From positions 9,756 through 73,755 of the IMG/VR virus record IMGVR_UViG_3300028888_000043: a stretch of 64,000 nt of DNA; one strand, 5' to 3'. Below, one piece after another: positions 5,372-59,794 of the stretch (positions within the stretch are counted from its first letter, which is position 1; each line of letters starts with the position of its first letter). The notes beneath the pieces are model-generated. The model did not search any database and was not told where the DNA came from. It worked only from the letters and a program-made list of their open reading frames with translations. Position numbers and translations under genes: made by a program. Source of the stretch: a virus (taxonomy: Duplodnaviria > Heunggongvirae > Uroviricota > Caudoviricetes).

Positions 5372-5390
5372 CAATTTACATAAATAAATT

Positions 5391-5831: not shown

Positions 5832-5836
5832 TAAAA

Positions 5837-5863
5837 GTGGTGAAGAGGTTCACCACTTTTTTT
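5837..5863 (+). terminator. Rho-independent terminator with embedded class-B element (TTTTGTTATATTTA at about 5859-5872)
   Basis: GTGGTGAA-gagg-TTCACCAC then T7; ATG of next gene about 6 nt past the element. Confidence 0.65.
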
Positions 5864-5877
5864 GTTATATTTAGGTT

Positions 5878-10627: not shown

Positions 10628-10654
10628 TACCACGATGCGAAAATTCTGCGGAAA

Positions 10655-10680
10655 GAGAGTCTTTTGACTCTCTTTTTTGT
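10655..10680 (+). terminator. Rho-independent terminator plus class-B element (TTTTGTTATATTTG)
   Basis: AGAGAGTC-tttt-GACTCTCT then T6. Confidence 0.7.
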
Positions 10681-10715
10681 TATATTTGTATGTGTAAACC
10701 TATATGTAATTTATT

Positions 10716-14667: not shown

Positions 14668-15402
14668 ATGAAATTTCTGATTCAGACAATCAATAAGCAG
14701 ATTGTCCATGATTTCTCCTGGGAACTCTCCAGATGTGAAGAGTATCACAAGTGGATTGAGGATCCTATCACTCTCCGTTATCATGAGGGAATGGACTTTG
14801 AGCAAATCAAACACCCTGATACATATGTACCCGTCGGGTCTGTGGAGTTTGTGTCAGCATACCTGAACAGGTTTTATCCGGAAGCAAAGGAGGCATTGAA
14901 ACCTCTCAATGTCCCTAAATGTCTGTATCCTTATACCGGCAGAACTATCTCCAATGTGAGAACACCAGAAGATTTCATCCCCTTCTGTAACTATTCGCTT
15001 GTGTTTGCAAAGGATATGAACAAGATTAAAAGTGAAAGAAGCGGGTTCATTGGTCTTCCAACATTTGAACGAGTGAAGGACTGTCAGGTATCATCTGTCG
15101 TTGACTTCCAGTCTGAATGGAGAGTATTTGTATTCCAGGATGGTTTATTGGACTGTCGGTGTTACAGTGGAGACTGTTTTGTCATTCCAAGTAAAGACAA
15201 AATCAAAGAGATGATGAACACATTCAGGACAGAAGGAACTCCTGTTGCATACACACTGGATGTAGGAGTCACCACCAATGGTGAGACTGTAGTTATCGAG
15301 TGTCACCGTTTCTATTCTTGTGGCCTCTATGGATTCAGTCAGCAGAATATTTATCCTGCGATGCTTTCGCAGACCTGGTACCAAATGAGAAATATGAAAT
15401 GA
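14668..15402 (+). CDS. ATP-grasp-like protein (tentative)
   Basis: SEWRVFVFQDGLL and TLDVGV..GETVVIECH resemble the RimK-type ATP-grasp E-RVFV and LEVN regions. Confidence 0.3.
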   Translation: MKFLIQTINKQIVHDFSWELSRCEEYHKWIEDPITLRYHEGMDFEQIKHPDTYVPVGSVEFVSAYLNRFYPEAKEALKPLNVPKCLYPYTGRTISNVRTPEDFIPFCNYSLVFAKDMNKIKSERSGFIGLPTFERVKDCQVSSVVDFQSEWRVFVFQDGLLDCRCYSGDCFVIPSKDKIKEMMNTFRTEGTPVAYTLDVGVTTNGETVVIECHRFYSCGLYGFSQQNIYPAMLSQTWYQMRNMK

Positions 15403-15403
15403 T

Positions 15404-16084
15404 ATGAAGCACTATGATTCCATACCAAGGATCCAGGATGATGGGACACTGAAAGGGGATTATGTCTGGGGGTTCAATAAACTTGATGGACAGAACTTCT
15501 GTGTAACATACAACTGCCGGAAGAAGACCTGGGGTCCATATGGTTCAAGGACTGTCACTGTTGATGAGAACAGCGAGCAGTTTGGTGACACTGTAAAGTG
15601 GTTCAATTGCTCCCACTATCCAGATGTCCTGGAAAAGATTGTCAGGGAACACTCCAGTAAGAAAGAGGTTTTCAATGGTGTAGATGAGGTAACCTTCTTC
15701 TTTGAATGGTATGGTGCAAACTCTTTTGCAGGGAAACATCAGGAAGGTGATGAAATGCATCTGGCACTCATTGATGTGTTCTTGAAAAAGAAAGGTTATA
15801 TGGAGCCTGCTGACTATTACTCCCTATTCTGCCTGAATGATGACATTGAGACACCTGACTTGATTTGCAGGGGGGACTTGGATTCTGAAATTATATCCAT
15901 CATCCAGGAGAATGACTGGACACAACCAGATGCTGAACTTCCAAATGTCAAGGAAGGTGTAGTCTTCAAGAGGAGTACACTTATGAAAGGACAGAGAAGA
16001 CCTTCTGTCAAGGTGAAGACCAAGTGGTGGTTGGACAAACTCCACTCTATGTATAGTGAAGAAGAATGTAAAAAGTTGGAGTAA
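15404..16084 (+). CDS. Rnl2-family RNA ligase nucleotidyltransferase domain (226 aa)
   Basis: motif I FNKLDGQN (KxDG), motif IV EGVVFK, motif V KVKTK about 20 aa later; spacing matches T4 Rnl2. Confidence 0.6.
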   Translation: MKHYDSIPRIQDDGTLKGDYVWGFNKLDGQNFCVTYNCRKKTWGPYGSRTVTVDENSEQFGDTVKWFNCSHYPDVLEKIVREHSSKKEVFNGVDEVTFFFEWYGANSFAGKHQEGDEMHLALIDVFLKKKGYMEPADYYSLFCLNDDIETPDLICRGDLDSEIISIIQENDWTQPDAELPNVKEGVVFKRSTLMKGQRRPSVKVKTKWWLDKLHSMYSEEECKKLE

Positions 16085-19864: not shown

Positions 19865-20257
19865 ATGAGTATCTGGAGAGACATACATAAAAGGAGTAAT
19901 GGTCTAACACAAAGAAAGGAAGACCAGATTGATAAGAGTCCTTATGCAACAAGGGCAGATGTTGAATCCATCATACAACCAATCACATATGCTGGAATTG
20001 TAAACTCACAAAGTCAATTACCACAGTCGGCAGCAGTAGGGGCAATCTTCTATGCCCAGGGTACTGGTGAATTTTATATCTACACCAATAATGGTTTTGA
20101 GTTAATCTCATCTGTAACTACTTGCGACAATAATTTGGATTATATTGATGACTCCATTGGTCAACCTATTAAACCATTTGAACCCACTATCGTATCTGTT
20201 GAAACAAAAAATGGAATTTATTATGAAACTATCTTTAGAGAACATAACTATCAATGA
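19865..20257 (+). CDS. MSIW-leader family member 3 (130 aa)
   Basis: MSIWRDIHKRSNGLTQRKED. Confidence 0.6.
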   Translation: MSIWRDIHKRSNGLTQRKEDQIDKSPYATRADVESIIQPITYAGIVNSQSQLPQSAAVGAIFYAQGTGEFYIYTNNGFELISSVTTCDNNLDYIDDSIGQPIKPFEPTIVSVETKNGIYYETIFREHNYQ

Positions 20258-21503
20258 CCACAAGATATTTGACCAGGAGGGAAAGTATAGGGGTGAAATC
20301 CTGTATGAGTACATCCGCGGATCCCATCTCTATGGTACCAATGTTGCCACTTCCGATGAGGATAGGGGAGGTATATACATTATGCCCAATGACAATCTCC
20401 TCGGTCTTGGTTTTGATTATCAGAACGAAATCAAGGATGCCAGTAATGACAAGTGCATCTGGGAACTTGGTCGGTTCCTGGAACTGGCGCTCTCTTCCAA
20501 CCCTACGGTCCTGGAAGCCCTATTTGTTCCTGATGACAAGGTTATCTATGAGCACCCTGTCATCAAGGATATCCGTTCGTACCGTGACGAGTTTGTGACC
20601 AAGAAGTGCTTCGCTCCATTCGGAGGATATGCAGAACAACAGATCAAAAAAGCCCAGGGTCAGAACAAGAAGATTCACTGGGATATGGAAGATGTTCAGA
20701 GAAAGAACCCTCTTGACTTCTGCTACACCTTCAAGAATCAAGGAAGTCAGAACATCCAGGACTTCCTGAAGGAGAACAAACTCGATCAGAGATACTGTGG
20801 TCTCGTGAACATCCCCAAGATGAAGGATGTCTATGGTGTGTACTATGACTTCGCTGCTTACTTCCACTTCGAGAACATTGACTGGTATGATGTGAGCTTC
20901 CAATCTGGTGGTGTCAAAGCACCATATAACAAATTCATCAAAGATGGTCAGTGGAGTGATGAGATTTCACTCCGTATCAGTCAGCATGCCTTCTATGGTT
21001 ATGCGGGCATCGTCAACCCGGAGGATCCCACCAAGTCCAATGAGGTAAGACTCTCTTCCATCCCAAAGGGTGAACACCCCATCTGCTTTATGGCCTACAA
21101 CTCCGATGGTTATGCTCATCACTGCAAGAAGTACAAGGAGTATGATGAGTGGAGACAGAAGAGGAACAAGGCCAGATATGAGTCCAATATGGATGGTGAG
21201 AAGTCTGGTGACCCTGATATGAAGTATGACTGCAAGAATATGATGCACTGCTTCCGTCTGATGTCGATGGCGAAGGAGATTGCTGAAGGTAAGGGTATCC
21301 TTCTTGACAGGACAAACATAGACAGGGAATTCCTCCTGGATGTAAGAAACAGGAAGTTTGGTTATTCAACCCTCAGCGAACTGATGCTCAACCTGAAAGA
21401 CAAGATGGACGAGGCAATCAAGAACTCCACCATCAAGGAGGAGATTGACCGGAAGATGGTCAATGAGATTCTGTTGAATGCAAGAAAACAATTTAATCAA
21501 TAA
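20223..21503 (+). CDS. predicted nucleotidyltransferase (COG3541 / RNA-repair-associated Pol-beta-like family)
   Basis: RGSHLYGTNVATSDEDRGGIYI is the minimal NTase signature GS...D.D; start uncertain (ATG 20211 or 20223; track start 20145 is TTG). Confidence 0.5.
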   Translation: MKLSLENITINDHKIFDQEGKYRGEILYEYIRGSHLYGTNVATSDEDRGGIYIMPNDNLLGLGFDYQNEIKDASNDKCIWELGRFLELALSSNPTVLEALFVPDDKVIYEHPVIKDIRSYRDEFVTKKCFAPFGGYAEQQIKKAQGQNKKIHWDMEDVQRKNPLDFCYTFKNQGSQNIQDFLKENKLDQRYCGLVNIPKMKDVYGVYYDFAAYFHFENIDWYDVSFQSGGVKAPYNKFIKDGQWSDEISLRISQHAFYGYAGIVNPEDPTKSNEVRLSSIPKGEHPICFMAYNSDGYAHHCKKYKEYDEWRQKRNKARYESNMDGEKSGDPDMKYDCKNMMHCFRLMSMAKEIAEGKGILLDRTNIDREFLLDVRNRKFGYSTLSELMLNLKDKMDEAIKNSTIKEEIDRKMVNEILLNARKQFNQ

Positions 21504-23052: not shown

Positions 23053-23865
23053 ATGTATTTCAAAACATTAAAGGATAAATGTGAATTTTATCGTTCGCTC
23101 ACAGACTACAAGCTGATGCCGAACAGTTATGTCCTTGCTATGGTGGATGGTCACTGTTTCAGCAGGATGATCAAGAACAAGTTTGACAAGCCATTTGATG
23201 ATATGTTCATCAATATGATGAATGAGACTGCCAAGTATCTATGTGAAAACATACAGGGTGCCAAGTTTGCTTATACACAGTCTGATGAGATCAGTATCCT
23301 CATCACGGACTTTGACACACCAATGACTGATTCATTCTTCAGTTTCAGACTCTGCAAGATGCAGTCTCTCATTGCTGCGATGGCGACTGCGAAATTCAAC
23401 CAGATGTATGCAAAATTGGCAGATGACTATAAGGGTTTCGGTCTCAAGAAGTTTGATATGAAAGAATACCCGACTTGTACCTTTGACTGCAAGGTCTGGA
23501 CTGTTCCCAATGCCAATGATGCCTATGCCTGGTTCCTGTACAGACAGACCGACTGCATCAAGAACTCCAAGGCCCAGACTGCACAGACATATATCCCTCA
23601 CAAAGACCTGATTGGACTCACTGCTGATGAGATGATAGTCAAGTTGAAGGATGAGAATGGCATTGACTGGAATACATTTGAGAATGGAAAGAAATATGGT
23701 CGTGTCATCATGAAGGTTGAGACCAATATGGAGAAAGACCTTCCGAATGGACAGCACATTGAGTTTGTCAGGAATGTGTGGACTCCTGTGGATGCAGTGG
23801 ATCTGAAAGATGACAATGAATGGTTGAGACAATTAATCCCAGGATATAATGAACAAACAAGTTGA
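23053..23865 (+). CDS. Thg1-like protein (tRNA-His guanylyltransferase / 3'-5' polymerase family)
   Basis: YVLAMVDGHCFSRMIKN..FDKPFDDMFINMMNETA...AYTQSDEISILI parallels Thg1 VVRIDGRNFH..FEKPND..AYGQSDEYSFV. Confidence 0.5.
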   Translation: MYFKTLKDKCEFYRSLTDYKLMPNSYVLAMVDGHCFSRMIKNKFDKPFDDMFINMMNETAKYLCENIQGAKFAYTQSDEISILITDFDTPMTDSFFSFRLCKMQSLIAAMATAKFNQMYAKLADDYKGFGLKKFDMKEYPTCTFDCKVWTVPNANDAYAWFLYRQTDCIKNSKAQTAQTYIPHKDLIGLTADEMIVKLKDENGIDWNTFENGKKYGRVIMKVETNMEKDLPNGQHIEFVRNVWTPVDAVDLKDDNEWLRQLIPGYNEQTS

Positions 23866-26263: not shown

Positions 26264-26293
26264 GCTGTTATGTCCTTTTTAATATTTATGAAC

Positions 26294-26336
26294 AAATATT
26301 TGGATATATCAGAAAAAATATGTATCTTTGTAATAG
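26294..26336 (+). promoter_or_regulatory. class-A consensus promoter (AAATATTTGG, about 20 nt, TATCTTTGTAATAG)
   Basis: Bacteroidetes -33 TTTG / -7 TAnnTTTG grammar; one of 13 near-identical copies. Confidence 0.6.
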
Positions 26337-26354
26337 GTAAACAAGACAGAAGTT

Positions 26355-26672
26355 ATGAATCTCAAATTTAAAATTGGTCAATTTATTGTTATTAAATGGA
26401 GACCTGTTGAAAATGTGTATCCTACTCCTCTCGGATTGATGTATTCTGAAAAGAATGAATCCAAATATGGTGTTTGGAGGATTGATCCTTACAAACCCGA
26501 TTATTTCAACAGTATTGACTATAAGATGCATCTGGTCCCGGTTGGTGAGTCTGCCAATATTTTCCTTCCTATGGACAGATACACTATTGATTACAATGAT
26601 TTGAAAGATGAATTCATCTTTGATGACCAGCATCTTGCTGAAAAGTTTGTAAAAGAATTTTTAACTGATTAA
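26355..26672 (+). CDS. hypothetical protein (105 aa)
   Basis: first ORF after class-A promoter. Confidence 0.5.
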   Translation: MNLKFKIGQFIVIKWRPVENVYPTPLGLMYSEKNESKYGVWRIDPYKPDYFNSIDYKMHLVPVGESANIFLPMDRYTIDYNDLKDEFIFDDQHLAEKFVKEFLTD

Positions 26673-28634: not shown

Positions 28635-28666
28635 AAGGGATTCGCTGGGAAGTGCATCCCTTTTTG
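28635..28666 (+). terminator. terminator hairpin plus class-B element
   Basis: AAGGGAT-loop-ATCCCTT then T5 then GTTATATTTAATG. Confidence 0.5.
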
Positions 28667-28679
28667 TTATATTTAATGT

Positions 28680-31415: not shown

Positions 31416-32600
31416 ATGTTTGAATTAAGCAAAGGCAAAGTCATTGCCATTATCACCGGCATTTTCGTCATCATCGTCCTCGCCCTTATGGGAAGTGCAG
31501 CGGAGGATGTGAAGAACGAGCAGATTGTCATCAACCAGTACCCTTTCTCCGGAAAGATGGCATACTGGACCGAGCCAGGCATGCACTGGCAGGGATTCGG
31601 TCGCAAGACTGAGTACTACAAGACCCAGCAGTTCTGGTTTGGAGGTAAGGATGTGGACGGTGAGTCCCATGGTAACCCCATCAAGGTCATTTTCAATGAT
31701 GCTTCCGTCGGTTACATCTATGGATCCCTCCGAGTCATCCTCCCTACCGATACCGAGCACCTGAAACTCATCCAGACAGCATACACGGGTATGGACCGTC
31801 TTATGAATGACCTGGTTGCCCAGAATGTTGTGAAAGTCATCTATGCTTCCGGACCTCTGATGTCGGCATTTGAGTCCTATGCAGAGAAGAAGAATGATAT
31901 GGTGTTCTATATTACCGACCAGTTGACCTATGGTGTGTACAAGACCACAGTCCGTGAGGAGGATACTGTCGATTCCTTCACTGGTGAAGTCAAGAAGGTC
32001 AAGGTTGCGTCCCTGGTACAGAATGAAGATGCTCCTAATGGTTATGTGCGTTCAGAGAAGTCTCCTTTCTCCTCCTATGGTGTGATTATCGACCAGGTGT
32101 CCATCACTGAAATCACTTATGATGAGAAGGTAACCCAGCAGATCCAGACACAGCAGCAGGCCAATATGTCTATCCAGACCAAGAAGGCAGAGGCCCTTGC
32201 CGCCCAGCAGGATGCCATCAAGGCAGAGGCAGAAGGTAAGGCTGCTGCCGCCAAGGCCAAGTGGGAACAGGAGAAGGTGAAGGCAACCGAGGTGACCAAG
32301 GCTGAACAGGAACGGGAAGTTGCCCGCCTGGCAGCAGAGAAGGCAGAGTTTGACAAGAAGAAGATTATTGCCGAGGGTGAAGCGGAGGCGGCTGCCAACC
32401 GTGCGAAGGTCTCCGCTGGTCTGACTCCTCAGGAACGTGCAGAGTGGGAATACAAGACCAAGGTTGGTGTCGCTGACGCTCTTGCCAAGACCAACTGGCC
32501 GAAGATTGTGATGAGTGGAGGTAATGGAGGTGCATCCGGCGCACTGGATGTCATCACCCTGGAGAGGATGAATGCACTTGTCAAGAGTATGTCTGACTAA
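31416..32600 (+). CDS. SPFH/band-7 (HflK/C-, prohibitin-like) membrane protein
   Basis: N-terminal TM, central SPFH-like region, A/E/K-rich coiled coil at C-terminus; C-biased codon usage. Confidence 0.55.
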   Translation: MFELSKGKVIAIITGIFVIIVLALMGSAAEDVKNEQIVINQYPFSGKMAYWTEPGMHWQGFGRKTEYYKTQQFWFGGKDVDGESHGNPIKVIFNDASVGYIYGSLRVILPTDTEHLKLIQTAYTGMDRLMNDLVAQNVVKVIYASGPLMSAFESYAEKKNDMVFYITDQLTYGVYKTTVREEDTVDSFTGEVKKVKVASLVQNEDAPNGYVRSEKSPFSSYGVIIDQVSITEITYDEKVTQQIQTQQQANMSIQTKKAEALAAQQDAIKAEAEGKAAAAKAKWEQEKVKATEVTKAEQEREVARLAAEKAEFDKKKIIAEGEAEAAANRAKVSAGLTPQERAEWEYKTKVGVADALAKTNWPKIVMSGGNGGASGALDVITLERMNALVKSMSD

Positions 32601-32654: not shown

Positions 32655-32690
32655 TGTATTGCCATAAATATTTTTATATAATTATAAGTT

Positions 32691-35072
32691 ATGGCAGATA
32701 CAATATCATATATAAAAATTGGAAATCAAACACATCCAATAGATGCAGTGACAGTCAATGGTATAACCATCTCACAACAAGAAAAGAACACATGGAATTC
32801 AAAACAAAATGCATTATCCTTTGACTCAATCCCTACAGAGAACTCTAACAACCTGGTGAAGTCAGGTGACCTCTACACTGTCATAGTTGACAATGAGGAG
32901 GTGACAGCAGCTGCTCTCAATGACCTCAATGACAGGATGATAAATGTGGAGAATGGTATGGTAACTGAAGAATATGACCCTGTATTCTCCTCATCTGCTG
33001 CTGCATCAATCACATCAGCCAACATCTCCAACTGGAACAGTAAGACCAGTAACACTGGTACCCTCACTGGTATCTCTATGAATGGGGTGAGTAAAGGTAC
33101 AAGCGGTAACATCAATCTTGGTACTGTCGTCACAGGTATAACTTTCAATGGTTCAAATGTATCTGTAAGTAAAGGTGTAGCAGCAATTAGTGTTTCTATC
33201 CCTGCCGCAGTGACATCAAATACAGTAGCAGGTTGGGGATTTACCAAAAATTCTGCACCTGGAACACTGACAACAACTGCAACTACATCTTTGTCAACTG
33301 CAACCAATGAGGCATTATCTGGGAACATCAGTCTCCACAAGATTGCCAAGACTGGTACTTATTCGGACCTGGTTGGAAAACCAGACCTACCAATGGCTGC
33401 TTACTTCAATCCTGCCAATGAGACTATGTATTTCTTCAAGTCAACAGCAGACAGGGATTCATTTGTGGCAAATAGAACACAAACAAGTCTGGTAATGTTT
33501 TCAACACAGATGTCACCATATATCAAGTTTAAAGACCCGAATGTTTTATCAGTCTTACTTACAAAAAACATAGGTGATGGTGTCGGAATAACTGAAACAC
33601 AGGCAGCCGCCGTTACAAGTATGAATAATGTTTTTGACGGCAATACAGGCATCAGTACCTTTGATGAGGGAGAGTATTTCACGGGATCTGACAGTTGGGC
33701 CAGTGCTTTCCGCAACTCAACTGTCACAAGGGTAAAACTTCCGATGGGTCTCCGCACAACCAATGCCTCTGGAGCATGGTCATATATGTTCTATGGATGT
33801 ACATCGTTGCAGGAGATTAATTTTGCTGATATGCAAAGAGGTACAGAGGCAGCACAGGCTGCACAATTCCAATGGTTTACTGGTTGCTCCACTCTTACAA
33901 CAATCAGTTTTGACAATATTGAGCAGATTTGTAAGTTTGTACCTACACGTTATCTTTTGTCAGATGTTCCATTTGGCTATAATACTAACACTCACCTTGT
34001 CAACTTGAATGGTCACGAACTCATAAATGTGGTTATTCCTTCAACCATTACTTCGATACGACCTTGCACCTTCTATCGTTTTAATAGGATTGTTTCTGTA
34101 ACAAACATAGCATCTGTGACAACAATAGGTCAATATGCATTCTACCAATGTACATCACTTACAACTGTTACAGAACCCACATCTTTAACAACAATAGAAC
34201 CATATACATTCAGTCAATGTACCAGTCTAAAATCAATATCCTTACCAGTGGCAACAACTATTGGTAACTGTGCATTCAATCAATGTACCAGTCTTTCTTG
34301 TGATTTGCCATTACCAGTGGCAACAACTATTGGAAAATATGCATTTTATCAGTGTCCTATTACAAATCTATCATTACCTGTTATTGAGACAATAGGTGAA
34401 TATGCATTTAGTGATTGTACTGAAATCACTTCCCTCACATTACCTTCAACAATAACAACAATAGGTAATGGTGCATTCAAGGGGTGTTCAAAATTAGTTA
34501 ATGTAACAATAAACAACAGTGTAAATTGTGGAAGAGATTGTTTTGTATCATCAGGAACAGGAGAAGGTACATTTACAATAAATGGTAATTATACAGAAAC
34601 TGTAGGAAGTTCATATAACAGACTTGGTTATTACAAACATTACAATATCACTGGGGATTTAAGTTCATGGACTACATATTGGACATTTGATTCAAAGTTT
34701 GAAACAATCAGAATAGGTGGTAATATAATTGGACAAAATACAACTGCATGTGTATTCAGAGATAGTAGTTATAGTCAAAAATTAAAATTTTTTGAATTGA
34801 TGGGAACATCCAACATCAATTTATGTTCTGCATTTCCACAATCAATTGAAAGTGGATTCATAGCTCACTTTGGATATAGTGATATTGCTATGACAGCAGC
34901 ACAAGCACATATATCTGATTCAAAGTTCTCAAAACTATATGTTGGTGATGGAACATCTGCTGCTGCCGATCAAGCAGTATTGAATAAATATCTTGCTGAT
35001 TCCACTTGGTCTCCATACTCATCAAAATTAGATCTCTGGTATAATTACACAGGTACATACAAAACCAGTTAA
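32691..35072 (+). CDS. tail fibre / receptor-binding protein with C-terminal BspA-type leucine-rich repeats
   Basis: N-terminal module shared with next gene; repeated xTxIGxxAFxxCxSLxxI(S/T)LP units near C-terminus. Confidence 0.6.
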   Translation: MADTISYIKIGNQTHPIDAVTVNGITISQQEKNTWNSKQNALSFDSIPTENSNNLVKSGDLYTVIVDNEEVTAAALNDLNDRMINVENGMVTEEYDPVFSSSAAASITSANISNWNSKTSNTGTLTGISMNGVSKGTSGNINLGTVVTGITFNGSNVSVSKGVAAISVSIPAAVTSNTVAGWGFTKNSAPGTLTTTATTSLSTATNEALSGNISLHKIAKTGTYSDLVGKPDLPMAAYFNPANETMYFFKSTADRDSFVANRTQTSLVMFSTQMSPYIKFKDPNVLSVLLTKNIGDGVGITETQAAAVTSMNNVFDGNTGISTFDEGEYFTGSDSWASAFRNSTVTRVKLPMGLRTTNASGAWSYMFYGCTSLQEINFADMQRGTEAAQAAQFQWFTGCSTLTTISFDNIEQICKFVPTRYLLSDVPFGYNTNTHLVNLNGHELINVVIPSTITSIRPCTFYRFNRIVSVTNIASVTTIGQYAFYQCTSLTTVTEPTSLTTIEPYTFSQCTSLKSISLPVATTIGNCAFNQCTSLSCDLPLPVATTIGKYAFYQCPITNLSLPVIETIGEYAFSDCTEITSLTLPSTITTIGNGAFKGCSKLVNVTINNSVNCGRDCFVSSGTGEGTFTINGNYTETVGSSYNRLGYYKHYNITGDLSSWTTYWTFDSKFETIRIGGNIIGQNTTACVFRDSSYSQKLKFFELMGTSNINLCSAFPQSIESGFIAHFGYSDIAMTAAQAHISDSKFSKLYVGDGTSAAADQAVLNKYLADSTWSPYSSKLDLWYNYTGTYKTS

Positions 35073-35112: not shown

Positions 35113-35163
35113 GTCATTCCCCATAAATACCTATATAGTATCAGAAAACTAATTCTAAACAAT

Positions 35164-37658: not shown

Positions 37659-38441
37659 ATGTCATCCATACTTTGTAAAGTAAATGATAGTTGGGTGCCT
37701 ACATCAAAATATTATAAAAAACAAAATGGAGAATGGGTGGAGATAAGTTATCAAGTATTTGAAAATTATGTTGAGACTTTATCTCCATTCATTTATCAAG
37801 GTCATACCCAATCCGAAACAGGTCCTGTAGTAGTCGATGAAACATATGACCCATCTAATCCTCCGGCACCAAATTCAGATGTCATCTATACCAACACTCC
37901 AGGTAGTCCAGAAGTGAAGACCAGTTCATCTGGAGAAGTCATTGAATACACATTCACAGATACATCCGGAAATACTACAAGTGATGTTGATACAGGCATA
38001 ATTGCCTTTGATAGCAACAACCCTGGCTGGACTCTTCATCTGGTCGTGGAAATGACACCAAATACAAACAACAACAAGAACATAATTGAAGCATATAACA
38101 CCACAAATAGGAGAGGACTGTATATATACACATCAGACAACTACCTGTACAAGAAAATACAGACAGCAAACTACAGCACCAACTCTTCATATGTAGCCTG
38201 GTCAAGGTTAAGTCCAACCGGTAAAGACTCAAATTACTATAAGACTTTGAACACCATCACATTTGATATAACATATACAAATGATAAGAAATTATCACTA
38301 TATGTAAACAATGTGGCACACTTTGAAAACTTCGATGTAGATGACACTACATTCCAAAATCTTACCATCAAAGTGGGTGTTGGAATGAGTGGATTTAATA
38401 TAAAAGAATTCACTGTTGTAAGAACAAATGTGAACACATAA
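37659..38441 (+). CDS. fibre-associated structural protein (260 aa)
   Basis: N-terminus KVNDSWVPTSKYYKKQNGEWVEI shares a motif with the C-termini of the next two genes. Confidence 0.5.
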   Translation: MSSILCKVNDSWVPTSKYYKKQNGEWVEISYQVFENYVETLSPFIYQGHTQSETGPVVVDETYDPSNPPAPNSDVIYTNTPGSPEVKTSSSGEVIEYTFTDTSGNTTSDVDTGIIAFDSNNPGWTLHLVVEMTPNTNNNKNIIEAYNTTNRRGLYIYTSDNYLYKKIQTANYSTNSSYVAWSRLSPTGKDSNYYKTLNTITFDITYTNDKKLSLYVNNVAHFENFDVDDTTFQNLTIKVGVGMSGFNIKEFTVVRTNVNT

Positions 38442-38467
38442 ATAATTATATTATAAGTGATTAACCA

Positions 38468-40880: not shown

Positions 40881-40901
40881 GAAATTATCCATAAATAATT
40901 T

Positions 40902-42793: not shown

Positions 42794-42848
42794 CTGCGAT
42801 TGCGATATGCGAATTGGTCCGTCCATCTGGGCGGATCAATTTTTTTTG
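42794..42848 (+). terminator. TGCGA repeat (CTGCGATTGCGATATGCGAA) plus terminator hairpin plus T8
   Basis: TTGGTCCGTCC-atct-GGGCGGATCAA (2 G-U pairs) then T8 then GTAAAAAAGTG. Confidence 0.7.
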
Positions 42849-42859
42849 TAAAAAAGTGT

Positions 42860-42906
42860 AAAAAAAATTTGGTAGTCTCGTTTTTTTGTTGTATCTTCGT
42901 ATCAGG
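42860..42906 (+). promoter_or_regulatory. class-A consensus promoter (variant -7 TATCTTCG)
   Basis: AAAAAAATTTGG...TTGTATCTTCGTATCAG. Confidence 0.5.
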
Positions 42907-42926: not shown

Positions 42927-43691
42927 ATGAAAAAGTCCGACATCATCGACGCCCACAATGCCCTCCTCAACAAGCTCAAGACCGTCCTTGCAGAGTACAA
43001 GGCACTCACAGGTCTGGACTATCCCAAGGCAGACTACCTCATCTCCCAGCTTGGTCCCTACACGATGAACTGGGGCAAGGAATCCCTCCAGAATCGCCTC
43101 AATGAGCGTCAGAATGCCATCATCACCATCCCCCAGGAGGCTGACATCTATGTCAAGACCGAAGAGATGAAGTCCTCCGAGGAAGGTCAAGCTTTCATCG
43201 CCTCCCTGGAGAAGTGCCAGACTGACATCTTGGCAGAGATTCACAATCTCTCCAAGGATTTTGTCGCCAAGTTCAATGAGATGCTTGCCATCTGTGGTCT
43301 CAAGGACTGGGAGATTGTCACCTATAAGAACCTCGAGAAGAACGCCCTCCCCCATATCCTTCCTTCTTTCGGCAAAGAGTTCTTTGACATCGTGAAGAAG
43401 GACATGATGTATGCCAGAGTCCATATCCACATCGGTTGTGACCATGGTGAATGGAAGATGAGTGTGGCTGCCGGTATCAACGGAGGAACTGTCCTCGGCG
43501 AGAATGGCGAAGAGTATCAGCAGTTCAAGGCATACATCACCATCTGCGACCATGCCAAGGCCTTCCAGATTTGGATGAACAACACCTATAATAAGATGGC
43601 CGAACAGATGAAGTCCCTCCTGGCTGCCCTTGACAAGGCTGACGAGGCAGTCCGTGACCCATACGCTGCCTGGATTGCATCAAAGAACTAA
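42927..43691 (+). CDS. hypothetical protein (254 aa), C-biased codon usage
   Basis: ORF after promoter; antisense ORF 42762-43553 rejected. Confidence 0.5.
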   Translation: MKKSDIIDAHNALLNKLKTVLAEYKALTGLDYPKADYLISQLGPYTMNWGKESLQNRLNERQNAIITIPQEADIYVKTEEMKSSEEGQAFIASLEKCQTDILAEIHNLSKDFVAKFNEMLAICGLKDWEIVTYKNLEKNALPHILPSFGKEFFDIVKKDMMYARVHIHIGCDHGEWKMSVAAGINGGTVLGENGEEYQQFKAYITICDHAKAFQIWMNNTYNKMAEQMKSLLAALDKADEAVRDPYAAWIASKN

Positions 43692-43763
43692 AAAAGTCAA
43701 GATTCTTTGAAACTTTTTCCAGGATTACAGGTATTATATAGTGAACCTTTAGAAGACACAGAC

Positions 43764-44588
43764 ATGATTAACTACACCAACATCACAGAGAACATCAACA
43801 TCTATTTCCGTGAAATCCGCAAGTTCCAGAACATGACCAAGGAAGATGAGGATATCCTTTTCTTCCGGGTGTCTCAGGGAGACAACTCTGCCGTCACTGA
43901 AATCTTCAACAAGATGGCGAAGCTCGCAGTCGCAACTGCAAAGACCTATACATCCGACCCAGACCTCCTTCAGGATCTCATCCAGGAGGCAAACTGCGGA
44001 ATCCTGGAGGCCATCCGGAAGTTCAACCCTTCAATGGGCTTCCGCTTCTCCTCCTATGCCCGCTGGTGGATGAAGGCGAACATCTCCAAGTTCCTTAATG
44101 AGAGCATGACTGTCCATCCTTCCAATGGGAGACTGATAATCATCGCCAAGAGAATCCGCCAGGAGTTCTTCAAGGAGAACCAGAGGGAAATCACCGAGTG
44201 TGAACTGATGGATCTCCTGGAAGAGAGAGGAGAGGTAGTCACTGACATCACCGCCATTTTGTCAGTCACTGTCGACAGTATTGACAAAGTGTCAGGTGAC
44301 GATGACAGCACCTTTGAGCAGTCCAAACTGTTCAACTCCAGGTCCGCCATCGACAATGACTATCTGTGTGTGGAGGAGAATGAGAGTCTCTCCGATGACA
44401 TTGATGGTCTGCTGAACAGACTCACCATCCGTGAAAGGACTATGGTGAAGATGAAGTTCGGTATCGGCTTTTCCGAGATGGAATATCCCGACATCGCCAA
44501 GAAGTGGGCAAGGATGACCGGTGAGAAGGTGATGAGTGCGGAGAGAGTCCGTCAGATCGTGGTAGGCGCTCTCAAAAAAATGAAGTAA
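43764..44588 (+). CDS. sigma-70 family RNA polymerase sigma factor (regions 2-4)
   Basis: DLIQEANCGILEAIRKFNPSMGFRFSSYARWWMKANI (region 2.1-2.4); LTIRERTMVKMKFGIG...SAERVRQIVVGALKKM (region 4.2); ATG start (track start 43707 is TTG). Confidence 0.75.
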   Translation: MINYTNITENINIYFREIRKFQNMTKEDEDILFFRVSQGDNSAVTEIFNKMAKLAVATAKTYTSDPDLLQDLIQEANCGILEAIRKFNPSMGFRFSSYARWWMKANISKFLNESMTVHPSNGRLIIIAKRIRQEFFKENQREITECELMDLLEERGEVVTDITAILSVTVDSIDKVSGDDDSTFEQSKLFNSRSAIDNDYLCVEENESLSDDIDGLLNRLTIRERTMVKMKFGIGFSEMEYPDIAKKWARMTGEKVMSAERVRQIVVGALKKMK

Positions 44589-44607
44589 CCCATAAAACAG
44601 AAAAGAT

Positions 44608-45213
44608 ATGAAAAGCAACTCTGACATCATCTACGTCATCAGCGCCCTGGTCGTGGTCGTCATCTTCCTGGGAGGTCTTAAACTTTTCATCGACCAGGAC
44701 AACAAGGATAAGGTGACCGAGACCATCATCGAACCCTCCCAGCAGGAACAGGTTGTTGACTTCAGTCATAATCCCGACCTCTACTACCAGTCTCTCCTCT
44801 ACAAGAGTGACAAGGGATTCAAGGAGATTGGTCTCTACACCATCCTCGGTCCCGACTATGACAAGTTCAACTATGTGGTGGATGCCGATCCTGAAATCCA
44901 GGAATATATGGACAAGACCCTCAAGGGATACTGCCACCAGACTCTCAACCTGTTCAATATGGCCTGGAATGATATGAAAGAGAATGACCTCTATGACGGT
45001 CATATGATCAATGTCCTGGAATCCATCATCCGGCAACAGAAAATGTTCCTGAATAAGTATGGATCTGCCAATGTGAAGGAATATGCCAAGACCAATATCT
45101 TCCGGGATGAGAATATCAACCTCGCTGCAGCCTATGAGACAGCTGCAAAGATGAAGAAGGTTGAAATGCTCGACCACTTCACTACAGAATATGAATTAAA
45201 AAACACCAAATAA
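44608..45213 (+). CDS. membrane-anchored protein (201 aa)
   Basis: N-terminal TM IIYVISALVVVVIFLGGL. Confidence 0.45.
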   Translation: MKSNSDIIYVISALVVVVIFLGGLKLFIDQDNKDKVTETIIEPSQQEQVVDFSHNPDLYYQSLLYKSDKGFKEIGLYTILGPDYDKFNYVVDADPEIQEYMDKTLKGYCHQTLNLFNMAWNDMKENDLYDGHMINVLESIIRQQKMFLNKYGSANVKEYAKTNIFRDENINLAAAYETAAKMKKVEMLDHFTTEYELKNTK

Positions 45214-45218
45214 AGACT

Positions 45219-45437
45219 ATGTTCAAGAATTACATCAGCGTGTCCTTCCAGGTTGTAGGAGGTAACTTCGGATGTGTGTACACGGCCATCAGAGGAAAGT
45301 TCACCTTTGATGAACTCAAACAGAAGATCTCCAAATTCGCCAATGACAAGTATGGTTACAATGTCGATCCGAAAGACATCACCATCACCGGCATCAGTGA
45401 AATCTCCCGGAGACTGTACAAACGATTAACCAAGTAA
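45219..45437 (+). CDS. hypothetical protein (72 aa)
   Basis: ORF. Confidence 0.4.
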   Translation: MFKNYISVSFQVVGGNFGCVYTAIRGKFTFDELKQKISKFANDKYGYNVDPKDITITGISEISRRLYKRLTK

Positions 45438-45442
45438 GACCT

Positions 45443-45823
45443 ATGATCAGGAAGACCGGAGAATACTCCAAGATGAAGAAAATGGATCTATCCAAGTGGG
45501 TGGTGACCAAGTTCTACCACTACACATCCTGTGCAAGGGATGTCTTTGCCGAGTATGATCCATTCTGGCATGAACCTGCCTGGGGTGACCCCTATGTGAA
45601 AGAGGTGTATGACCATTTCCTGAAATGTGCCGATGCCTACCTCAACTATCCAAAGATAGATTTTGCATCCCTGGGCAACCAGAACAAGACAACCATAGAG
45701 ATTTTCAACATCAAGACCGGAGAGAAACTATACCTCACCCAGTATGACGGCCGCTACTCCATCGGCAGGGATGTGTGGAGTGAGTTCGGTTATGTAACAG
45801 AATTTGGAATCATCAAGAAATGA
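45443..45823 (+). CDS. hypothetical protein (126 aa)
   Basis: ORF; ATGA overlap with next. Confidence 0.45.
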   Translation: MIRKTGEYSKMKKMDLSKWVVTKFYHYTSCARDVFAEYDPFWHEPAWGDPYVKEVYDHFLKCADAYLNYPKIDFASLGNQNKTTIEIFNIKTGEKLYLTQYDGRYSIGRDVWSEFGYVTEFGIIKK

Positions 45824-46191
45824 GTGTCTGGGCAGACATACACAAGAGGAGTAACGGCACCACTGTCCGGAAAGAAGATCTTCCCCAGGGGTATGATCCA
45901 ATCCTGGAAGAGAGGATGAAGAAGTATGAAGAGGAGAGGAAAATAGAGGTGGCAAAAGCAGAGAAAGAACAAAGGTTCCTGGACATCTGGGACAGTATCT
46001 GTCTTGCTATGGTCATCATCATGATTTTCTCTTCTGTAGTGACTGTAACCTGTGTCTTGATGTATGGTAATTATTTACCCATCTGGCTGATGGTGATCTT
46101 TTGTTCGTCCGCATTCGCCAGTATGGTAATGTCCATTGGTGGAATGTATTTCAATGATATGAGAAGTCATATACGAAAATATCTGGAATGA
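45820..46191 (+). CDS. MSIW-leader family member 4 (123 aa; C-terminal 2 TM)
   Basis: MSVWADIHKRSNGTTVRKED; hydrophobic C-terminal half. Confidence 0.6.
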   Translation: MSVWADIHKRSNGTTVRKEDLPQGYDPILEERMKKYEEERKIEVAKAEKEQRFLDIWDSICLAMVIIMIFSSVVTVTCVLMYGNYLPIWLMVIFCSSAFASMVMSIGGMYFNDMRSHIRKYLE

Positions 46192-46445
46192 GTATCTGGT
46201 CTGACATACACAGAAGATCCAATGGTCTTGCCATCAGGAAAGAGGATGACATCCAGCAGGAACCGCCGATAATAGACCTGGACTTTTCATCCTTATATCC
46301 AAGGACCATAATCTTTGATCATCCGGAATCACTGTCTGATGGTTCAGGTCAGAATCATACACAGGCAGACTTTGATGAGTTGTTGAAAAAATATTTAAAA
46401 GAATTAAGAGATGAGCGTCTGGGCAGATATACACAAGAGGAGTAA
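46188..46445 (+). CDS. MSIW-leader family member 5 (85 aa)
   Basis: MSIWSDIHRRSNGLAIRKED. Confidence 0.55.
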   Translation: MSIWSDIHRRSNGLAIRKEDDIQQEPPIIDLDFSSLYPRTIIFDHPESLSDGSGQNHTQADFDELLKKYLKELRDERLGRYTQEE

Positions 46446-46932
46446 CGGTGTCTCCTTGAAAAAAGAGAAGGTCGTCTTCAAGGAGATGGTCTATTCTTCT
46501 TACAGGGAAATTGAAATCATTGCCCGCAATGTCTACAAGGGAGTCGAGTACTTTGTTGTGAACATCGGAATCCATCCCTGTGCATATGTGGTCTGTGAGA
46601 AGGAATTCCTTGACAAGCATAGAGATGAATGGGGTGACATCGATGGCATCAGTGTCCATGGAGGAGTGACCTATACTGGAAAACTCTCTGCTCTATCTGC
46701 TTTCGATGATGACCTGGAGCTGGAAGATGTATATTGCTTCGGTTGGGACTATGGCCATTGCGGCGACTGGTCAGGATACCTGACTGACTTCCAGAATGGT
46801 GAAAACAGGAAGTATGATACTTGGATGGTGGTTGATGATTGCAAGTCTGCCATCGACCAGTACCTGGAAAAGAAGAAACAGGATGACTCACTGGCAACCC
46901 TGACCTACACCGGATCATACTGGGTGGCATAA
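46411..46932 (+). CDS. MSIW-leader family member 6 (173 aa); C-terminal domain paralogous to stand-alone gene 46998-47684
   Basis: MSVWADIHKRSNGVSLKKE; shared GIHPCAYVVC..VHGGVTYTG..CFGWDY..DW domain. Confidence 0.6.
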   Translation: MSVWADIHKRSNGVSLKKEKVVFKEMVYSSYREIEIIARNVYKGVEYFVVNIGIHPCAYVVCEKEFLDKHRDEWGDIDGISVHGGVTYTGKLSALSAFDDDLELEDVYCFGWDYGHCGDWSGYLTDFQNGENRKYDTWMVVDDCKSAIDQYLEKKKQDDSLATLTYTGSYWVA

Positions 46933-46939
46933 ATATCAG

Positions 46940-46974
46940 AGGCGATGTCAAGGCATCGCTTTTGTTATATTTAA
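46940..46974 (+). terminator. terminator hairpin plus class-B element TTTTGTTATATTTAA
   Basis: GGCGATG-tcaagg-CATCGCT then TTTTG. Confidence 0.55.
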
Positions 46975-46997
46975 ATGATATAAAAGTGTTTCAGGTT

Positions 46998-47684
46998 ATG
47001 AAGGAAATCATCTACAACCATCAGCCCAATTTCTTCGAGATAGTTGATGAGGGTGAATACAAGGGTGTGAATTACATCTGTATCAACAGGGGAATCCATC
47101 CGGCAGCATGTGTCATCTGTGATGAGAGGTTTCTCAAGAAGCACACCAGTAAGGGAGGTATCATAGAGTGCATCACTGTCCATGGAGGGATGACCTATTG
47201 TGGTGACATCAGTAAGGTGAAGCAACTTGAGGGTCACACTGGTCATTGCTTTGGCTGGGAGTACAACAGGAACAATGACTGGGCCGGATTCTGGACAGAT
47301 GAGGAGAACATCAAGGCGGGCAACCACAAATGGACAACCAAGGAACTGGTATATGACTGTCACCGGGCTATCGACCGCTACCTGGAGATTATGGAGAAGG
47401 ATAATATCCTCGACCCGGTGACCAGTCCGCTCATCACCAAGGATGATCTCAAGAACCTGGGATTCCACTCCATCTATGAGATGATGAAGAATGATGAGGA
47501 GAGTGCCTTCCAGTTAAATGGAGTCAATGATGGGAACAAGTGGTCCATCTATGTGGATCTCCAGACTCCCAGTCTGTCCTATGCCAGGAATCAGAGTCCG
47601 AGAAGGAAGTATGAAGGAAGTATCCTGACTATGGAGGAACTCCGGATGGTGGTGGATCTCTGTGACATCCCTATAGATATTTGA
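46998..47684 (+). CDS. hypothetical protein; paralog of the C-terminal domain of MSIW member 6, lacking the leader
   Basis: GIHPAACVICDERFL..VHGGMTYCG..CFGWEY..DWAGFW; ATG start (track start 46962 is TTG inside the class-B element). Confidence 0.5.
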   Translation: MKEIIYNHQPNFFEIVDEGEYKGVNYICINRGIHPAACVICDERFLKKHTSKGGIIECITVHGGMTYCGDISKVKQLEGHTGHCFGWEYNRNNDWAGFWTDEENIKAGNHKWTTKELVYDCHRAIDRYLEIMEKDNILDPVTSPLITKDDLKNLGFHSIYEMMKNDEESAFQLNGVNDGNKWSIYVDLQTPSLSYARNQSPRRKYEGSILTMEELRMVVDLCDIPIDI

Positions 47685-47691
47685 CGAATCT

Positions 47692-47718
47692 GCGATTATG
47701 CGATTGCGGCCAGAATTT
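47692..47718 (+). repeat. TGCGA tandem-repeat element (CTGCGATTATGCGATTGCGG)
   Basis: same element family as 29545, 42794, 49152, 61516, 63034. Confidence 0.6.
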
Positions 47719-49195
47719 CATCTGTAATTGCATAAATCTTTTTCTTATATGAACTCCAACCAGCAGCGGCCTTATAAGCATCCACAGATTCTGCTGGAAC
47801 ATAGTAGCCACTCACCATATACCATTGAGAACCATTTCCAGTCGCTTCCCTTGTAGGAGGAGTAGTTGCAAGACATACCACCTTGAGACCATTTGCAGCA
47901 TACTGACCTGATCTATCACCGATATATGTCAAAGTAGAAGGGAAGACAATGTACTGACAGACCTCATTGTTCTTGTCATACCAGGGACAGACCTGTGTGT
48001 ATGCACCATTGTCCATCTTTGCCATAAAATCCCTGAACGATCCGGCCATCAGTTTGGTGACACCTTCCGCTATCTTGACTACATTCTGCTTTGACAGACC
48101 ATAATCAGCACCGCCATAACAGATAGTTCCATCCTTGGAGTAGACAATGTTGTTGACTGCTTTGAAGTTTGGATTGTTTTCATCTATGGTGATGGTCTCA
48201 AGCATATCCCAGAAGACGTCATTGTATTGACCGGTATAATCTGCGCCATTACCCAGTGTCTGAAGTCTTTCACCAATGTGTATCTCTCTCGGTGAAAATT
48301 GATTTGAAAACACTTCTTCACCAAACAACATCAATCTTGGAAGGTTCAATATCTCCTGGAATTTACCTGGATATGTATCATAGATATTGGAAAATGCGCC
48401 GTGACCTATATATGTAAGAGTATCCGGGAGTAATTGAGTACCTCCTGGAATACCTGATGTCTGGGCATATCCTATACTTGAACCAGCAAAAGCATAATTC
48501 TGGATAACATTCAATCCCTGGTTCATATTCACATGGGACAATTCACCACAGAAGGCGAACGCCTGTACGCTCACCTGCTTCAGTGTGGACGGGAAGGTAA
48601 TCTCCTTCAGTTTGCTGTTCCTGAAACAGTAGTTTCCGATTATCATCATACTTGGAGGAAGAGTTATACTCTCAAGGTCATATGCACCGAAGAATCCACC
48701 CTGCTTGGCTGCCTGTTCTTCATATGTGGTGTCTGTGAAAGTGGTCTTCGTGACATTCACAAAGAACTGGAACTCATCAAAATGCTTCAGGTTGGCAAAA
48801 GTGAGAGACCTGTAACCTCCAGGTGTGGATGAATCCGACACAAGTATGTTGGCTGCATTGAATGAATCATTTGTAACAGCAATCGCCTGGTCAATGGTCA
48901 TGAATGTGTCTGTCTGTCCCACCCAACCGGCATTCCTGGCGATTTCCATCGCTTCCGGGTTGGACTGGTTGGTCATTATCTTCCTGTAGAAGATTTTCTT
49001 CTTCCATTTTTCTGTGTCTGTCGTCTTCAATGTACACAAAGTAGGATAGTTCACCGGGTTTTCCGAGACATCTTGGATGTATTCATCCACTGTATTGTAT
49101 TCTTTTAAATACTTCATAACATAATAGTCCTTTATATTATTTATGACCTTTCTGCGAATCTGCGACTGCGATATGCGATAGACTGAAATCCACAT
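47696..49195 (-). CDS. BspA-type leucine-rich-repeat protein (499 aa), minus strand
   Basis: repeated I(G/Q)NYAF..C..L..I.(L/F)P units (ITLPPSMMIIGNYCFRNSKLKEITFPSTLKQV...); both ORF ends lie inside TGCGA-repeat elements. Confidence 0.55.
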   Translation of the reverse strand: MWISVYRISQSQIRRKVINNIKDYYVMKYLKEYNTVDEYIQDVSENPVNYPTLCTLKTTDTEKWKKKIFYRKIMTNQSNPEAMEIARNAGWVGQTDTFMTIDQAIAVTNDSFNAANILVSDSSTPGGYRSLTFANLKHFDEFQFFVNVTKTTFTDTTYEEQAAKQGGFFGAYDLESITLPPSMMIIGNYCFRNSKLKEITFPSTLKQVSVQAFAFCGELSHVNMNQGLNVIQNYAFAGSSIGYAQTSGIPGGTQLLPDTLTYIGHGAFSNIYDTYPGKFQEILNLPRLMLFGEEVFSNQFSPREIHIGERLQTLGNGADYTGQYNDVFWDMLETITIDENNPNFKAVNNIVYSKDGTICYGGADYGLSKQNVVKIAEGVTKLMAGSFRDFMAKMDNGAYTQVCPWYDKNNEVCQYIVFPSTLTYIGDRSGQYAANGLKVVCLATTPPTREATGNGSQWYMVSGYYVPAESVDAYKAAAGWSSYKKKIYAITDEILAAIA

Positions 49196-52572: not shown

Positions 52573-52633
52573 ATTTATGATTTATGAATTGCAAATCGCT
52601 ATAAATACTGTATACAATCAAATCCAGTAAACT

Positions 52634-53298: not shown

Positions 53299-53327
53299 AA
53301 CCCAGACAAACAGGTGCAAAAAAATCG

Positions 53328-53366
53328 TCACCAGGATGTAAATCCTGGTGATTTTTGTTATATTTA
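53328..53366 (+). terminator. Rho-independent terminator plus class-B element
   Basis: TCACCAGGAT-gtaa-ATCCTGGTGA then T5 then GTTATATTTAATG. Confidence 0.75.
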
Positions 53367-59753: not shown

Positions 59754-59794
59754 GAATTCCCTGGAGAAACCCAGGGAATTTTGTTATATTTAAA
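59754..59794 (+). terminator. Rho-independent terminator plus class-B element
   Basis: AATTCCCTGG-agaaa-CCAGGGAATT then TTTGTTATATTTAAA. Confidence 0.7.

Follow-up and report, generated by a model that had tools for sequence, protein, structure and literature searches.

Which promoters does a sigma factor read when it is carried by a phage? This question is raised by a gene at 43764..44588 (+ strand) in a 64,000-nucleotide stretch of the viral record IMGVR_UViG_3300028888_000043 (positions 9,756 to 73,755; hereafter the window), which encodes a sigma-70-family factor of 274 amino acids. Temporal switches driven by sigma factors are classical in SPO1 and T4, and the RNA polymerase of Bacteroidota, to which the indicated host belongs, has an unusual primary sigma and unusual promoters. 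To our knowledge, the transcription programmes of Bacteroidota huge phages are essentially unknown, and we found nothing specific in the literature on this phage group or on sigma factors of Bacteroidota phages. We identified three classes of promoter-like motif, A, B and C, and suggest tentatively that the phage sigma reads class B, a conserved site fused to a transcription terminator.

A conserved site fused to terminators

The window corresponds to roughly positions 9.07-73.07 kb of the 410,934-bp metagenomic contig Ga0310697_10000001 (JGI 3300032030), so this is a huge phage with a genome of about 411 kb, about 84 kb of which was covered by our analysis. An unbiased survey of intergenic 8-mer enrichment over the window and seven relatives (L numbers denote stored sequences) revealed exactly three families, which we call A, B and C. 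Nothing else was notable.

Class B consists of a stable hairpin followed directly by the 14-mer TTTTGTTATATTTA and was found six times in the window, always on the + strand. The units lie at 5833..5873, before the thymidine kinase operon (190-aa open reading frame, ORF); at 10650..10688, with the variant TTTTGTTATATTTG; at 28635..28675, before a Dam-type DNA methyltransferase (ATG at 28680); at 46937..46973, before a conserved 228-aa gene, with a class C octamer at 46928 that overlaps the upstream stop codon; at 53327..53366, before an FKBP-type peptidyl-prolyl isomerase (PPIase), with an orthologous unit in all eight relatives although the hairpins differ; and at 59754..59792, with a class C octamer (59818) 25 nt further on. 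At the first and third of these units the ATG lies 4 nt past the 14-mer. A seventh copy was found just upstream of the window, before the IMPDH gene (L214 7847). The genes behind class B are thus IMPDH, the thymidine kinase operon, the Dam methylase, the 228-aa gene, FKBP and a metallophosphatase operon; leaving aside the 228-aa gene, they are of middle-gene type.

The sequence TTTTGTTATATTTAA was exact at 28662, 46960, 53353 and 59779, with one mismatch at 5860 and two at 10675. A search that allowed up to two mismatches gave eight matches, the additional two at 1565 and 16554, compared with 0.27 expected, and none of 100 shuffles reached eight. At all six sites a GC-containing hairpin with a T-run, as in Rho-independent terminators, was present (-13.9 to -18.4 kcal/mol, z-scores -2.9 to -6.0). 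This agrees with the first-pass annotation, which had placed six strong terminators directly before the motif. It had also read the motif as an extended -10 element with the ATG 5-35 nt downstream. The anatomy stood, as all sites have TTTTG-T-TATATT, that is, TG, one base and TATATT. The distances were only roughly right: from the motif counted as a 15-mer to the ATG of the next long ORF they are 3, 26, 3, 23, 31 and 86 nt.

We compared the FKBP unit among nine phages (the window, L001, L002, L004, L125, L206, L207, L208 and L209), the sigma factors of which are 52-96% identical. All have a hairpin followed by TTTTGTTAT(A/T)TTTA upstream of FKBP. The hairpins (-15 to -19 kcal/mol) are almost wholly unlike in sequence, whereas the 14-mer is invariant save for one A-to-T change in L206, and the ATG lies 24-32 nt past it. 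The hairpins were folded per sequence, and a column-wise covariation count was abandoned because the MAFFT register was off by one in L208 and L209. A near-invariant 14-mer beside wholly rewritten hairpins implied that the unit is under selection, the terminator apparently being kept by structure and the adjoining site by sequence.

In 145 kb of the sigma-less Bacteroides phages B40-8 (45 kb) and crAss001 (100 kb), we did not find class B at up to one mismatch, compared with seven occurrences in the 64-kb window. These two phages had one weak hairpin-linked site with two mismatches, class A-like sites of the host type, and class C octamers at background level on both strands. A scan of IMG/VR for the exact 14-mer gave mostly single chance matches in AT-rich contigs. 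In some unrelated low-GC viral contigs, L020 (IMGVR_UViG_3300026522_000033), L025, L038, L090 and L124, a hairpin was followed by TTTTGTTATATTTA, and in three cases then by 4 nt and an ATG; L020 had four copies in 11.5 kb. L020, L045 and other contigs with the 14-mer are unrelated to the phage and had no sigma gene in their stored parts. There the unit looks like an ordinary extended -10 promoter behind a terminator, so the scan shows only that the combination arises elsewhere too. In the window and its relatives, the counts and comparisons support class B as a real, strand-specific, gene-proximal motif, and we infer that it is a promoter.

A full-length sigma factor outside the named cellular families

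The sigma ORF begins with the ATG at 43764, which fits the homologues opening with MNYTN or MINYTN, and ends at 44588. The first-pass annotation had recognized sigma regions 2 and 4 in it, and the gene indeed encodes a genuine sigma-70 factor. Pfam Sigma70_r2 matched above threshold (1.8e-13, 50.5 bits, cut-off 24), and the protein has the features of region 2 expected for core binding, -10 recognition and melting. Sigma70_r4 (1.4e-3, 18.6 bits, cut-off 24.1) and Sigma70_r1_2 (0.21) fell below their cut-offs, and Sigma70_r3 gave no match. The helix-turn-helix of region 4 was present. Its ERVRQ aligns to E585-Q589 of sigma-70, and many homologues carry a precomputed PF04545 match for this region. 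The NCBIfam models RpoS, RpoD and RpoH aligned to the protein end to end (1e-32 to 1e-26); these models and the sigmaS and sigmaA chains of the PDB cover residues 2-273.

An AlphaFold2 model from a 19-sequence family alignment (pLDDT 77) showed a region 1.2/sigma2 bundle (residues 4-113), a three-helix sigma3 (122-169), a disordered 3.2 linker (172-208) and sigma4 helices (211-273). Foldseek matched this model to sigmaS, sigmaA and sigma32 over about 275 columns. Extracytoplasmic function (ECF) sigmas lack region 3 and the 3.2 linker, both of which were found here. The full-length alignments and the four-part fold therefore show that the gene does not encode an ECF factor, the possibility that had been named as fatal to the earlier proposal. 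As judged from alignment and model, the protein is an RpoD/RpoS-like sigma of groups 1-3 with regions 1.2, 2, 3 and 4. It presumably binds core RNA polymerase and directs promoter-specific initiation.

The equivalog cut-offs of RpoS, RpoD and RpoH were missed widely (at best 111 bits compared with 379), and by sequence comparison the protein belongs to a separate clade that holds no orthologue of any named cellular sigma. A family-alignment search of 185,579 cellular genomes gave best segments of 23-45% identity in many phyla and near-full-length matches of 23-31% at most in unrelated phyla; with the single protein as query, no close relative was found in cellular genomes. As these matches were of low identity and scattered over many phyla, neither a host nor a prophage could be assigned from them. 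A 285-aa RpoD-like sigma of a Paludibacteraceae metagenome-assembled genome is collinear with the phage protein (29% identity over 266 aa). The best match among deposited phages was 28% identical, and peptide patterns revealed no relatives in IMG/VR. In metagenomes, the family has at least 120 homologue clusters at 49-96% identity. The best 120 clusters have proteins of 266-331 aa, mostly 269-296, on contigs of up to 178 kb. We found no second sigma paralogue in the window or in eight related loci. RpoD-like sigmas of very large phages are already documented; this gene is a deep-branching new one.

The sigma operon

A class A promoter (TTTGG-N19-TATCTTCG, 42868..42899, + strand), found by motif search, heads an operon of a 254-aa ORF (42927..43691, +) and the sigma gene. 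Upstream of it are TGCGA repeats (42796) and then a terminator (42811-42842). The 254-aa ORF is present in some relatives only and had no significant family match (DM_Arn, 1.3e-3, below the cut-off).

The box GTATTATATAG (43731..43741, +) ends 22 nt upstream of the sigma ATG. All nine relatives (L001-L004, L125, L206-L209) have a box aGTAT(A/T)TATAG about 22-30 nt upstream of theirs. It is outside classes A, B and C and could serve the sigma gene as a promoter or as a regulatory element. A separate GTATATA class was not supported as a dispersed motif in the window.

The genes flanking the sigma gene differ among relatives. A nearby anti-sigma or partner gene had been proposed as a check, but Pfam, PHROGs and NCBIfam searches of 42927-47684 and of the small class A genes revealed neither an anti-sigma nor a conserved partner.

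Host-type class A promoters

The primary sigma of Bacteroidota (sigma-A) uses promoters with a -33 TTTG and a -7 TAnnTTTG box. Class A has the form TTTGG-N19-TATCTTTG-TAAYAG, which equals TTTG-N20-TAnnTT[T/C]G. There are 15 such sites in the window, all on the + strand and with invariant spacing, compared with 0.08 expected for the strict pattern; one of them (33909) is intragenic. All 15 have the two boxes within the 19-21 nt distance of Bacteroidota sigma-A promoters, the -33 TTTG/-7 TAnnTTTG motif of which is cited in PMC6847099. Judged by its motif, class A is the Bacteroidota -33/-7 promoter.

A repeat search also revealed tandem (C)TGCGA clusters (3-4 copies with a period of 6-8 nt) at 23377, 29547, 42796, 47692, 49154, 57842, 61518 and 63027 on the + strand. 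Only 0.38 would be expected in shuffles, compared with the eight observed. Six of them precede a class A -33 box by 49-83 nt, past the last stop codon and ahead of the terminator, and similar clusters were found in L002, L125, L208 and L209. They look like the operator of a phage regulator.

A Bacteroidales host is indicated by the 15 perfect Bacteroidota sigma-A promoters and by best protein matches in crAss-like Bacteroides phages. The SPFH/Band_7 protein (31416-32600) is 44.7% identical to that of crAss001, and the Dda/PIF1-like helicase (3265-4755) is most similar to that of the crAss-like phage cr50_1 (33.5%). These best matches suggest gene sharing between this megaphage lineage and Crassvirales; an affinity with T4 was not supported. 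We found no near-identical DNA among deposited phages.

The class C octamer

Class C is the octamer YATAAATA, often followed by (G)TATATA. Across the phage family it was found on the + strand 31 times in intergenic and 6 times in coding DNA. The form CATAAATA, the most enriched intergenic octamer, was found 20 times and once, respectively. From octamer contexts, class C sites on the + strand were located before a 793-aa BspA-type leucine-rich-repeat (LRR) protein (CATAAATA, 32663..32670), an 830-aa gene (35122..35129), a 794-aa gene (38437..38444), a 628-aa gene (40890..40897, 4 nt ahead of the ATG), the second WYL_2 gene (TATAAATA then CTGTATA, 52600..52607, conserved in L125, L207 and L209) and a 146-aa hydrolase-like gene (5379..5386, 4 nt ahead of the ATG). 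The first four precede the large genes at 32691, 35164, 38468 and 40902. The longer form CCATAAATA is common to large genes (32662, 35121, 40889 and 59817). Class C also precedes tRNAs. The mature 5′ end of a tRNA-Ala lies 7 nt past one copy. Just upstream of the window, 8.4 kb of sequence (L214 1-8400; L211; record Ga0310697_10000001) contain 16 tRNA genes, several of which are flanked directly by the octamer.

The first-pass annotation had stressed a TATAAT before the gene at 32691, which it called a fibre gene. The hexamer is present (TATTTTTATATAATTAT at 32669-32685, TATAAT at 32677-32682), but it is not common to the other large genes. As YATAAATA is common to them, TATAAT is not the conserved feature. 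The fibre label was not borne out either, as no tail-fibre family matched and the gene at 32691 encodes the BspA-type LRR protein. A rigid bipartite structure of class C, with YATAAATA and a downstream TAnnnT box, was rejected because the spacing varies from 0 to 6 nt.

The T4-type late promoter is the octamer TATAAATA/NATAAATA without a -35 box, and it is read by gp55 with gp33 and gp45 (PMC2984593). Class C is the same octamer, likewise without a -35 box and at promoter-like distances from genes and tRNAs. Unlike in T4, no homologue of gp55, gp33 or the sliding clamp (gp45) was seen among the ORFs scanned in about 84 of the 411 kb, and the best protein matches are crAss-like.

The three classes can be placed in one register. 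An octamer, exactly 4 nt and an ATG were found for class B at 5860 and 28662, and for class C at 5379, 40890, L206 11975, L209 14723 and L214 7452. With the A of the ATG as +1, the octamers at -12 to -5 are TATCTTTG (A), TATATTTA (B) and YATAAATA (C). Compared with the host box, class B carries A for G at -5 and has no -33 box; class C shares these departures and also replaces TT with AA at -8/-7. The B and C octamers are clearly separate, with either TT or AA at octamer positions 5-6, and the intermediates TATATATA and TATAATTA were at background level. A hybrid, hairpin-TTTTGT-TATAAATA, was found at L209 14717. Class B is followed by class C in the window (59779/59818), L209 (6848/6876) and L004 (5756/5771). 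Before the orthologous 228-aa gene, the window and L002 have C, hairpin and B, and L208 has C alone.

Which class the phage sigma reads

Two considerations made the pairing of the phage sigma with class B the most economical one. In known phages, the T4-late motif to which class C corresponds is read by a minimal gp55-type factor. In addition, jumbo phages carry both minimal gp55-like and complete RpoD-like sigmas (PMC7824862), which would leave class B for the complete sigma. The pairing is also favoured by the full length of the sigma and its kept -10 melting residues, by the near-invariance of the 14-mer at the FKBP sites of nine phages, by the absence of class B from the two sigma-less phages and by the middle-gene type of the genes behind it.

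In this proposal, the phage sigma would be made early, since a host-type class A promoter heads its operon and is open to host RNA polymerase from the outset. It would bind the host core RNA polymerase and then direct transcription at promoters without the host -33 element, for which class B is the best single candidate. The T-tract of the terminator and the following G would supply an extended -10-like TTTTG-T-TATATT. Transcription would restart about 7 nt past the hexamer, right behind the terminator that stops early read-through. The standard promoter register would put the transcription start on the A of the ATG at two class B genes. Class B mRNAs would therefore be leaderless (5878 and 28680) or have short leaders of about 15-30 nt. 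The middle class would be B, with genes for nucleotide metabolism, for DNA methylation and for a chaperone. Late genes would fall to class C, under the phage sigma itself or a separate T4 gp55-like factor encoded elsewhere in the 411-kb genome. Some early class A promoters would carry upstream TGCGA-repeat operators, and the terminators would insulate downstream genes, which classes B and C would re-launch. We regard the pairing of the sigma with class B as a tentative reading that may well prove wrong. The full three-tier code (class A for early genes by host sigma-A, class B for middle genes by the phage sigma, YATAAATA for late genes and tRNAs) seems possible but rather doubtful.

Several results weigh against the pairing. 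Nothing computed ties the sigma to class B over class C or class A. The residues expected to contact DNA gave a mixed picture. We placed E. coli sigma-70 residue numbers on the phage protein by RpoS alignment and standard numbering. Y430, W433 and W434, which act in -10 melting, are kept within FRFSSYARWWMKA, and FRFSSYARWWMKA/FRFSSYARWW is invariant among the 19 members of the family. The equivalents of Q437, A438 and T440 are Ala, Asn and Ser. The two residues that contact the TG of extended -10 promoters are replaced: H455 by an invariant Asn, and E458 by a variable residue (R/A/T/Q/D/K/V). The phage sigma thus lacks the canonical TG contacts of region 3.0. One RpoD-like sigma of Bacteroidota has the same Asn at the 455 position. 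In region 4.2, E585, R586, R588 and Q589 are invariant and R584 is variable. As the -35 contacts of sigma4 are kept and only class A has a conserved upstream element, this hints at a possible reading of the class A type. An argument from region 1.2 (YFREI in the phage, YITDV in Paludibacteraceae) for the TG/TA difference at -6/-5 was dropped, since it depended on a single Bacteroidota sigma sequence.

Class B itself is also closer to the host box than had been claimed. Its core TATATTTA shares five of the six specified bases with TAnnTTTG and differs only in the last, which is A at five of the six window sites, and site 10675 (TATATTTG) matches the host box fully. The statement that such -10 elements are not those of Bacteroidetes sigma-A was therefore too strong. 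What separates class B from a sigma-A promoter is this final A and the missing -33 element, as that position falls inside the variable hairpin. Moreover, terminators that precede class A promoters likewise have a G after their T-run, and part of the 14-mer may thus be terminator and not promoter. Finally, no gp55-like factor to which class C could be left was seen in about 84 kb, the phage has no clear affinity with T4, and capsid and tail genes were also not seen in that part of the genome.

It is also possible that the phage sigma reads class C and that host sigma-A, with or without a phage co-factor, reads class B as a variant without the -33 box. The strong intergenic enrichment of class C, its promoter-like distances before large variable genes and a tRNA, the lack of a second sigma in the window and eight related loci, the single base between the class B core and the host box, and the exchange of B and C before the orthologous 228-aa gene would all fit. 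However, the A of class C at -7, where a T is usual, is atypical for a sigma with canonical regions 2.3-2.4. T4-type phages read this octamer with the minimal gp55 and not with a full-length sigma (PMC2984593, PMC7824862). Class B was absent from the two Bacteroides phages that depend on host RNA polymerase, which is also difficult to reconcile with reading by sigma-A. We consider this alternative unlikely.

The phage sigma might instead be a surrogate primary sigma that reads class A and replaces or outcompetes host sigma-A, for example if the phage inactivates the latter. There is precedent for such a factor: huge phages with a sigma-70 of their own that also target the host sigma have been reported (PMC7162821). 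The collinearity and equal size of the 285-aa Bacteroidota sigma and the kept sigma4 contacts, for which only class A offers a conserved -35-like box, agree with this. In addition, class A (TTTGG-N19-TATCTTTGTAAYAG, fixed spacing) is far more uniform than the host-type promoters of phage B40-8. On the other hand, the phage sigma resembles Bacteroidota sigma-A no more than it does sigmas from unrelated phyla (25-31% identity everywhere). Neither E. coli sigma-70 nor the Bacteroidota sigma shares its residues at Q437, T440 and R584. Because a class A promoter also drives the sigma gene itself, host sigma-A is needed for at least the first round of transcription from this class. This alternative is quite improbable.

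Very improbable, finally, is the view that class B is no promoter. The 14-mer would then prolong the terminator tail or be bound by some other protein or RNA factor, in antitermination or RNA processing, and the sigma would have unrelated targets. In favour of this view, no class B copy lacks a terminator, TTTTGTTAT could act as a U-tract, a T-run and G are present at terminators without class B, and a class C octamer that could be the real promoter follows within 1-30 nt in three places. Against it, the ATATTTA part is missing from most terminators of the window, and the motif resembles a -10 element, being AT-rich, asymmetric and strand-specific. Its fixed distances to the ATG (4 nt at two genes, 24-32 nt at all FKBP orthologues) fit a promoter better, and at FKBP and the Dam methylase no other promoter-like motif lies between terminator and ATG.

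Comparison with known systems

In Bacillus phage SPO1, gp28 and gp33/34 form a sigma cascade, and the middle promoters have -35 and -10 boxes. The proposal for class B resembles it in that the host sigma would first express the gene of a phage sigma, and this factor would then redirect RNA polymerase to a separate, highly conserved class of phage promoters. It differs in that class B has no conserved -35 box and is fused to a terminator hairpin. Class B is also like extended -10 (TGn) promoters, in which no -35 box is needed, although the phage sigma does not conserve the TG-reading residues of E. coli region 3.0. With the Bacteroidota sigma-A system, the phage shares the exact class A motif and a short sigma without region 1.1. 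Class B departs from that system through the lack of a -33 box and the A for the final G, and the sigma of the window through Q437A, T440S and R584A.

The closest comparison is with the RpoD-like sigmas of jumbo and huge phages (Iyer et al. 2021, PMC7824862; Al-Shayeb et al. 2020, PMC7162821). They likewise are full-length phage sigma-70 factors in very large genomes, with no phage RNA polymerase in view and recruitment of the host core presumed. Unlike them, the present family is at most 31% identical to cellular sigmas (185,579 genomes) and at most 28% to those of deposited phages, and the host is a Bacteroidales with unusual -33/-7 promoters. The available parts of PMC7824862 and PMC7162821 do not define the cognate promoters of the published sigmas.

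Gene content of the window

Almost all window genes are on the + strand, and their content is auxiliary and replication-type: an M42 peptidase, a NUDIX hydrolase, the Dda/PIF1-like helicase, thymidine kinase, an RNA ligase, a Thg1-like enzyme, RlaP, the Dam-type methylase, an SLT lysozyme, the SPFH/Band_7 protein, BspA-type LRR proteins, two WYL_2 proteins, the FKBP PPIase and the metallophosphatase. The RNA ligase, the RlaP nucleotidyltransferase and the Thg1-like tRNA-His guanylyltransferase form an RNA-repair-type set (14668-16084, 20148-21503 and 23053-23865), and the large tRNA array lies just upstream of the window that carries it. The two BspA-type LRR proteins are encoded at 32691-35072 (+) and 47696-49195 (-). 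The block at 32.7-42.8 kb, between the Band_7 gene and the sigma gene, is the most variable part among relatives.

Small ORFs at 19866, 45820, 46188 and 46411 share the N-terminal motif MS[IV]W[AS/R]DIH[KR]RSNG, which was also found in L125, L207 and L209. This points to a paralogous family dispersed in the genome. The minus-strand ORF 26286-26633, called as the longest, is probably spurious; the class A promoter at 26299 and a + strand ORF from about 26350 fit better.

Implications

The three-class promoter map of a Bacteroidales megaphage is new, as is the terminator-fused class B, which has strong comparative support. So is a T4-late-like motif in a phage without evident T4 affinity. Three sharp promoter-like motifs and a candidate sigma, conserved in a large metagenomic family, provide a testable model of gene timing. 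If class B depends on the phage sigma, a compact terminator-promoter unit with an orthogonal sigma would be useful for Bacteroides engineering. If class B is independent of it, the T4-like late motif and the host-type early promoters with a repeat operator would still stand.

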